Part shown: in pieces, positions 10,415 to 11,371 of the stretch | How positions within the stretch are numbered: the first letter of the stretch is position 1 | Layout of the letters: every line of letters begins with the position of its first letter | Position numbers and translations under genes: made by a program | Notes under the pieces: model-generated | What the model saw: the letters and a program-made list of their open reading frames with translations, nothing else | The model's database searches: none | Told to the model about the DNA's origin: nothing | From: Eledone cirrhosa | Taxonomy: Eukaryota | Length of the DNA: 64,000 nt | Assembly: GCA_964016885.1 (NCBI GenBank) | Contig: OZ024746.1 | Span: 89,280,001-89,344,000 of the forward strand | Direction of reading: 5' to 3'

Positions 10415-11371
10415 TGTAAGTATGTATGTATGTATACGTACATACATATATGTATACAGACATACAGATATACAGTATATACATACATGCACACATATAT
10501 ACATGCACGTATCGGTTTACCGAACATTTATTATAATGCTCGGTTTGTTTGTTTGTAAACAAACGAACAGCCCGAATTACGACGTGCAGTGTTTAAGCAA
10601 CCACGTCACCTTTTTGTTCAACACTGACACAGGAACGATGTACTAGTTTGAAGCTTATTAGCTATCGTCAGCATCGTATACCTTCCTACCAGATCGTTGA
10701 ACGTCTGAAAGTATTTACTTTCTTTATGCATATTAACGGCTGAGCAGCCTAATTTGCATATCGAGTGACTTCAGTCGGCCAGGCACACCGAAAACGATAA
10801 ATGGAATAGAATGAAACGAAATTTCATTTCTCACTCTTAGTACGGCACTTACTTAAATGTAAGTATGTATGTATACGTACATACATATATGTATACAGAC
10901 GTACAGTAGTATGTATATACATACATTCACACATATATACATGCACGTATCGGTTTATCGAACATTTATTATAATGCTCGGTTTGTTTGTTTGTAAAGAA
11001 ACAAACAGCCCGAATTGCGCGGTACAGTGTTTAGGAAACCACGTCACCTTAGGAAACACTGACACAGGAATGATGTACTAGTTTCAAGCTTATAAGCTAT
11101 CGTCAGCATCGTATACCTTCCTGCCAGATGGTTGAACGTCTGAAAGTATATACTTTCCTTATGCATATTGTTTACAAACAAACAAACCGAGCATTATAAT
11201 AAATGTTCGGTAAACCGATACGTGCATGTATATATGTATGCATGTATGTATATATACATACTACTGTACGTCTGTATACATATATGTATGTACGTATACA
11301 TACATACTTACATTTAAGTAAGTGCCGTACTAAGATTGAGAAATGGAATTCCGTTTCATTTTATTCCATTT
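10415..11371 (-). mobile_element. Retrozyme-like tandem repeat (family F, ~435-440 nt unit, ~1.7 copies) plus inverted ~200-bp arm
   Basis: Tandem copies 10415-10857 and 10858-11169, one HHR motif per unit; 11170-11371 is an inverted copy of about 10797-10996; TA-flanked. Confidence 0.85.
11071..11111 (-). ncRNA. Minimal hammerhead ribozyme (family F)
   Basis: Minus strand: cgatg-CTGACGA-t-agct tata agct-t-GAAA-CTAG-TA-catc. Sister copy 10636-10676 has GAAA->CAAA. Confidence 0.88.

Follow-up and report, generated by a model that had tools for sequence, protein, structure and literature searches.

How did a tandem of short units, each carrying a hammerhead ribozyme motif, come to lie between AT-repeat tracts at a single locus, and from what kind of template was it copied? 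The locus lies in a 64-kb stretch of the Eledone cirrhosa genome (hereafter the window, meaning the whole stretch of DNA that was analysed), which is AT-rich and contains many (TA)n tracts, in a genome of 3.0 Gb in 1,796 contigs. The initial annotation had read it as a candidate circular-RNA retrozyme inserted from a circular or multimeric template. We find that the repeat belongs to a real, abundant and recently active family of the retrozyme type that bears a clean footprint of Penelope-like elements (PLEs), and that it is very probably a non-coding hammerhead repeat mobilized by PLEs.

Positions within the repeat (u1-u442) refer to a majority unit derived from 22 full units, with u1 immediately following the predicted cut. 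The copy in the window consists of one B arm and one A arm. The long arm (10414..11169, minus strand) carries 1.7 tandem units, starts at u349, crosses the hammerhead twice before reaching the B end (~u226), and abuts an (AT)n tract; within it lies one full 435-nt unit from cleavage site to cleavage site (10641..11075, minus strand, with u1 at 11075). The short inverted arm (11168..11373, plus strand) extends from u79 to the A end (u286) and overlaps the long arm by 2 nt (11168-11169). Its terminal 60 nt (11314..11373, plus strand) form a PLE-type tail that stretches from the B site (11313) to the A end (11373) and is recognized from its sequence and from end statistics; since B grades into (AT)n, it is placed only to within a few bases. 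A (TA)n target tract with no strand assigned adjoins the A end (11371..11465), and a short (AT)n tract adjoins the B end (10404-10415). These features bear out the earlier description of a hammerhead pair 435 nt apart on the minus strand and of an array longer than one unit that begins and ends mid-unit; the CUGACGA cores start at 11106 and 10671.

The long arm is 94.6% identical to the majority unit of subfamily S1, to which the window copy belongs. Its direct repeats (10420-10734 and 10859-11169) are 90% identical, and the inverted arm (11168-11373) matches 10797-11000 at 95%. The tandem pairs differ at 6 and 12 positions and have no non-majority (derived) site in common, which argues against recent local duplication. 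A separate fragment noted at about 9100-9150 is real, in that 9050-9157 matches the window element at 82%, but it is a tail-only stub of the other subfamily, S2 (9092..9150, plus strand), which lies within (TA)n and ends at the A site; with 87% identity to S2 and 81% to S1, it represents an insertion independent of the main array.

The two hammerhead motifs differ in their state. The motif at 11070..11112 (minus strand; predicted GUA|C cut at 11076/11075) has an intact type I core, but its description as intact holds for the core only, as there are private changes in stem I (11071) and in loop II (11094). The second motif (10635..10677, minus strand; predicted cut at 10641/10640) carries a GAAA to CAAA change at 10650, which we take to be G12C under hammerhead core numbering and which is predicted to inactivate it. 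This change is private to the window copy: the intact letter makes up ~99.9% of contig depth, as read from contigs of four sequencing runs of unrecorded kind. The window copy therefore likely cannot release a monomer and is likely a dead end, and the 435-nt circle that had been expected from this locus is unlikely, with one of the two ribozymes altered and family monomers of ~420-456 nt. With G12C in one of its motifs, the copy also falls outside what a recent preprint calls an 'active' retrozyme (10.64898/2026.07.22.740005).

The hammerheads were identified from their core letters and helix layout. Helix I has 6 bp, helix II 4 bp and helix III 1-2 bp with a palindromic ACUAGU, the canonical metazoan type I form, which is described as cleaving in dimeric form (PMC4209133). 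Comparison of the window with Rfam gave no match at or above a family's gathering score, and the 108 matches at E<=10 were all of simple-repeat microRNA type and included no hammerhead model; folded alone, the window's hammerhead regions were as stable as shuffled sequences (z 0.0 to 0.3). Across the family, stem I variants stay paired (A-U in 109, U-G in 63 and G-U in 16), and the canonical hammerhead with these paired variants is retained across subfamilies, although figures for core conservation partly reflect how the loci were selected.

That the repeat is no chance occurrence is clear from its abundance: a 31-nt core has 10,697 exact matches in the genome and a 21-mer from the tail has 17,487, and the reversed-pattern control gave 0 for each. 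Full units measure 420-464 nt, with a majority unit of 442 nt. They fall into two main subfamilies that differ at 31 sites, with intermediates, and the mean distance to a subfamily's own majority is 2.2% for S1 and 3.4% for S2. The predicted junction of a circle would read GUA|CAUC in S1 and GUA|CAGC in S2. The unit is non-coding, its longest stop-free frame being 92 aa, and it gave no match below E=0.37 against 16 PLE protein fragments. Because Pfam matched only 6 of these 16 fragments, several of them below cut-off, we assign no PLE clade names.

In being a short, non-coding and non-autonomous tandem repeat with one type I hammerhead per unit, canonical helix sizes and a short palindromic helix III (compare PMC4209133), the family fits the DNA-level definition of an animal non-LTR retrozyme and is likely one; its self-cutting and circular RNA are predictions. 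It shares with animal non-LTR retrozymes, as described in PMC7229834, the tandem arrangement of non-coding units, the single canonical type I hammerhead in each of them and the low GC content, and also a highly paired predicted circle in which the hammerhead is free to form and the presence of PLEs in the same genome; its short palindromic helix III resembles the axolotl and newt motifs. The unit is slightly longer than the 170-400 nt given there for retrozymes (PMC7229834), and lies within the 51-972 nt given in the preprint (10.64898/2026.07.22.740005). Unlike animal retrozymes, the family occurs mostly as one or two units, dispersed. PLEs have been proposed as the movers of animal non-LTR retrozymes (PMC7229834; 10.64898/2026.07.22.740005). 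In Xenopus, 24/57 retrozyme families are described as matching a Repbase element, nearly always a PLE (10.64898/2026.07.22.740005); unlike those, the present unit has no pLTR relative in the two PLE families compared (N1 and N2, below).

The arrangement of insertion ends provides the main evidence for PLE involvement. We mapped 142 insertions, drawn from best matches and position-sampled copies, and found 80 with a single arm, 54 tail-out inversions and 8 more complex cases. Before counting, we dropped repeat records of the same insertion, insertions truncated by the edge of a locus, matches below 79% identity or confined to the simple-repeat region, and an exact local duplicate at C1:19619210. 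The 3' ends are fixed at B (~u226) and A (u286), 60 nt apart and far from the cleavage site, whereas the 5' ends vary. Single-arm insertions end at one or the other site in 64/80 cases, 33 at A (u279-287) and 31 at B (u204-237), with 16 ending elsewhere; short tail-only arms were sometimes missed, which affects at least four of these 'single-arm' cases. Tail-out inversions combine the two sites: 37 carry A and B, 2 carry B and B, none carries A and A, and 15 have one other end. In a de-duplicated position sample from contig C1, which overlaps the larger set, the corresponding numbers are 34, 1 and 0 (p=1e-9 against independent choice), the rest being 13 inversions in which one end lies elsewhere, 59 insertions with a single arm and 9 complex ones, so that one A and one B end occur together in 34/35. 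An (AT)n tract lies directly beyond 87/105 A ends and 74/104 B ends, compared with 27/97 5' ends. Both insertion ends sit within (TA)n, where a target-site duplication would be unreadable.

Start points had been expected to be permuted across copies; they are not freely permuted, as the 3' ends fall at two fixed internal sites. The idea that the family is not a local duplication of fixed monomers is supported. Two fixed internal 3' ends that define a tail, variable 5' truncation, an inverted 5'-truncated copy with the tail at one end only and a microsatellite target are all PLE-type traits, and the genome contains an autonomous PLE with the same footprint.

This autonomous family, N1, is ~4 kb long and encodes an RT with a C-terminal GIY-YIG domain in open frames of up to 1,407 aa; eleven best-match copies, a biased sample, lie 0.5-1.4% from their majority. 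Its ends fall at two sites 60 nt apart in (TA)n: of 35 end segments, each site accounts for 16, and the other 3 continue into the frame. Adjacent inverted pairs of N1 have one end of each kind in 6/6 cases, and opposite arms of N1 overlap too. The inverted terminal arm of the window copy, noted previously, is present, with its 95% match, but because N1 shares the target, the 60-nt tail and the one-of-each rule, it is an ordinary PLE second arm and no evidence for a circle. Opposite-arm overlap was likewise rejected as an argument for a circle, since N1 arms overlap in the same way. The unit shows no sequence similarity to N1 or to the related family N2, with scores within those of shuffled sequences; N1 is therefore a candidate helper only. 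A third family has a tail of ~63 nt, which makes a 60-nt tail a weaker tag of a unique partner.

The same features place the family beside endonuclease-positive PLE insertions. PLEs are described as often carrying the tail on one end only, with an inverted 5'-truncated copy (PMC8557442, PMC3846280). In an anole PLE, the tail is delimited by two internal RT start sites that do not depend on hammerhead cleavage, and both target strands are cut and extended (PMC11167929). The unit family resembles such insertions in its two internal 3' ends that define a tail, the one-sided tail, the inverted 5'-truncated copy, the partial tandems, the (TA)n or AT-rich target and ends unrelated to the hammerhead cut; it differs in having no ORF and in a tail of 60 nt rather than 30-40 nt. 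Both of its start sites end in AU, matching a (TA)n primer, whereas the anole element is reported to start without homology, and its one-of-each rule is nearly strict, whereas the anole PLE showed no strand difference in vitro in the account cited (PMC11167929). The non-autonomous Chlamys PLEs (MRC1) offer a further parallel, as they too are non-autonomous and form head-to-tail multicopy insertions moved by a PLE; they share 3' sequence with their autonomous partner, unlike the unit with respect to N1 and N2, and their clade is described as lacking the canonical hammerhead that the unit has (PMC8557442). Neither fixed two-site 3' ends nor inverted arms are reported for retrozymes in the sources cited (PMC7229834; 10.64898/2026.07.22.740005), and a literature search of main texts, mostly non-subscription, returned no cephalopod retrozyme and no counted one-of-each rule for retrozymes, although supplements may list such families.

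What template was copied? In a sample of 71 arms chosen by their tails, 61 pass the cleavage site and 10 stop there against 6.7 expected (p=0.14). The run-off at this site that is expected of cleaved linear monomers was thus not found in these arms, which argues against such monomers as the main template. Comparison at 21 diagnostic sites shows discordance in 43/698 cases between tandem units of one insertion and in 34/631 between opposite arms, compared with 46% between insertions, so that units within an insertion share a haplotype at ~94%. An insertion therefore usually derives, in both of its arms and in every unit, from one template type. The shared haplotype and the read-through fit a circle, and they also fit an uncleaved homogeneous multimer. 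A circular or multimeric template, as originally put forward, stands in that the template was continuous across the hammerhead; free permutation does not survive, and the inverted arm is no sign of a circle.

Arm lengths constrain how far copying proceeds. The median arm is 392 nt, 61/139 arms exceed one unit and 5/139 exceed two, and past the first unit the truncation rate per 100 nt climbs from 0.26 to 0.53 (p=9e-5); this doubling and the scarcity of arms over two units argue against an unlimited rolling circle. A truncation step exactly at one unit, as displacement on a circle would give, was considered and set aside because the rise is gradual and does not discriminate. Some long arrays contain zero-difference unit pairs, and these pairs, present in three loci (L093, L144 and L004), reflect later local duplication. 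One of them (L093:3843-5773; C1:19314832) is a 4.6-unit array of alternating 422- and 420-nt units in which alternate units differ at 0-2 sites, showing that a dimer duplicated locally.

We consider it probable that the family is a non-LTR retrozyme copied in trans by a PLE RT and GIY-YIG endonuclease, and we lean towards a circle as the template. In this model, a tandem transcript would be cut by two hammerheads that pair through the palindromic helix III, and the monomer's ends, brought together by an extended stem I, would be ligated into a circle. The PLE enzyme complex would nick a (TA)n tract on both strands, and cDNA synthesis would be primed on one strand at the first and on the other at the second of the two AU-ending internal sites; both cDNAs would continue past the junction, and joining of their 5' ends would yield the inverted structure. 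Against this model, 8/9 predicted Xenopus retrozyme dimers remained uncleaved in vitro (10.64898/2026.07.22.740005). A more specific version, in which a viroid-like circle without kinship to its helper recruits a PLE pair through the two AU-ending sites and a conserved fold, one per strand, strikes us as rather unlikely. If this version is right, the genomic footprint would be direct evidence of PLE machinery integrating retrozyme circles. Previously, PLEs were argued to move animal retrozymes because the two occur together and because retrozymes resemble pLTRs. Here, the PLE footprint is borne by a non-coding hammerhead family itself, its start sites are mapped, and an autonomous family with long open frames resides in the same genome. 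As an addition to a known system, the finding lends itself to in vitro testing of retrozyme mobilization and of how PLEs form their inverted 'tail at one end' structures.

Majority units folded as circles are branched, with u1-25 pairing with u384-411 and stem I closing the ends, and reach z-scores of -8.8 and -10.2 (40 shuffles; -5.5 for the window unit), although palindromic simple repeats inflate these values. Of 15 common variants at paired sites, 13 preserve the pair against 4.0 expected, in a test that ignores transition bias. On 22 of 35 full units, RNAalifold finds pairs changed on both sides in stem I and in two long-range helices, three of these changes lying outside simple repeat. 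Pair-level covariation did not exceed that of shuffled alignments (6 pairs against 5.1, with 158/500 shuffles reaching the count). Selection on the fold is likely rather than proven.

The alternative that survives best also involves a PLE moving a non-autonomous family, but from an uncleaved linear multimer of homogeneous source arrays, with the circle or cleaved RNA being a by-product or serving expression or stability. A PLE is reported to use unprocessed RNA in vitro, and hammerhead mutants to insert normally (PMC11167929). Arms that mostly stay below two units with truncation rising with length, arm overlap that needs no circle given its occurrence in the 4-kb N1, and one array that looks haplotype-mixed (C1:33967305) all fit this reading. 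However, it needs many homogeneous source arrays, as 36 haplotypes occur among 56 fully called insertions (many of them singletons due to private mutations); arms that reach 3.7-4.3 units yet contain no zero-difference pair (L146, L147) and the hammerhead kept with paired stem I variants across subfamilies also speak against it. We regard a linear multimer as possible but doubtful.

It is improbable that the unit is instead the terminal repeat (pLTR plus coding start) of an unseen autonomous PLE, with the arrays as truncated stubs. The end structure does match that of PLE stubs (PMC8557442, PMC3846280), Xenopus retrozymes are said to resemble pLTRs (10.64898/2026.07.22.740005), and the 173 insertions examined are a fraction of many thousands, among which a rare autonomous relative may exist. 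However, none of the 173 contains an RT and GIY-YIG frame in sense to the repeat, as an autonomous PLE would, and their 345 flanks hold no sense junction to PLE coding DNA; sequence shared among flanks consists of other repeats beyond the (AT)n tract or of missed unit pieces. The sole direct join to PLE coding sequence is antisense, at u262, and occurs twice within one locus. The first 100 tail matches on contig C1 likewise map into 71 unit insertions in 98 cases, the other 2 being short stubs, and beyond the A site the unit continues into itself, whereas N1 continues into its frame. The canonical hammerhead (helix I 6 bp, helix II 4 bp) also lacks the long helix II of the minimal PLE shape described in PMC4209133 and seen in the N1 motif. 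At the locus with the antisense join, two unit arms (L091:2909-3147 and 3885-4761) meet the same PLE coding fragment, an inverted duplication of the chimeric junction.

A satellite- or MITE-like DNA-level repeat, made by local tandem duplication and fold-back with an incidental hammerhead, was rejected as highly improbable: the right part of the window copy resembles 206-nt terminal inverted repeats around a core and some arrays were duplicated locally, but inverted-arm length varies by copy, 80/142 insertions have no inverted arm, the ends are polar (3' fixed, 5' variable) and the window's tandem pairs share no non-majority site.

The window contains further PLE-related sequence. An N2 stub (11466-11795) shares the (TA)n tract with the hammerhead element and consists of a minus-strand arm ending at the B site of N2, with a hammerhead-like motif at 11693, and a plus-strand tail-only arm, the end pattern also seen in N1; similar stubs lie near 38063-38402 and 51959-52584. 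A stub of the third family (10150-10400, plus strand) has a hammerhead-like motif at 10271 and two ends ~63 nt apart, and this family has inverted pairs with one end of each kind at 7 loci. Decayed PLE copies of different families at 790-3058 (plus strand) and 42379-44800 (minus strand) retain RT-like and GIY-YIG-like stretches broken by stops and frameshifts. A loose scan returned more hammerhead-like motifs at 31340-31383, 40585-40635, 13562, 30819, 32104 and 59393, two of them as inverted pairs. Elsewhere, a short repeat flanked by (TA)n (9625-9850), which has fixed ends and forms a near-perfect hairpin of 130 nt (z -17), with 88 matches in 823 kb of genome sequence, looks like a MITE or a non-autonomous Helitron-type element, and a 691-aa RT frame with a PHD-finger match (60571-62643, minus strand) is likely a LINE.
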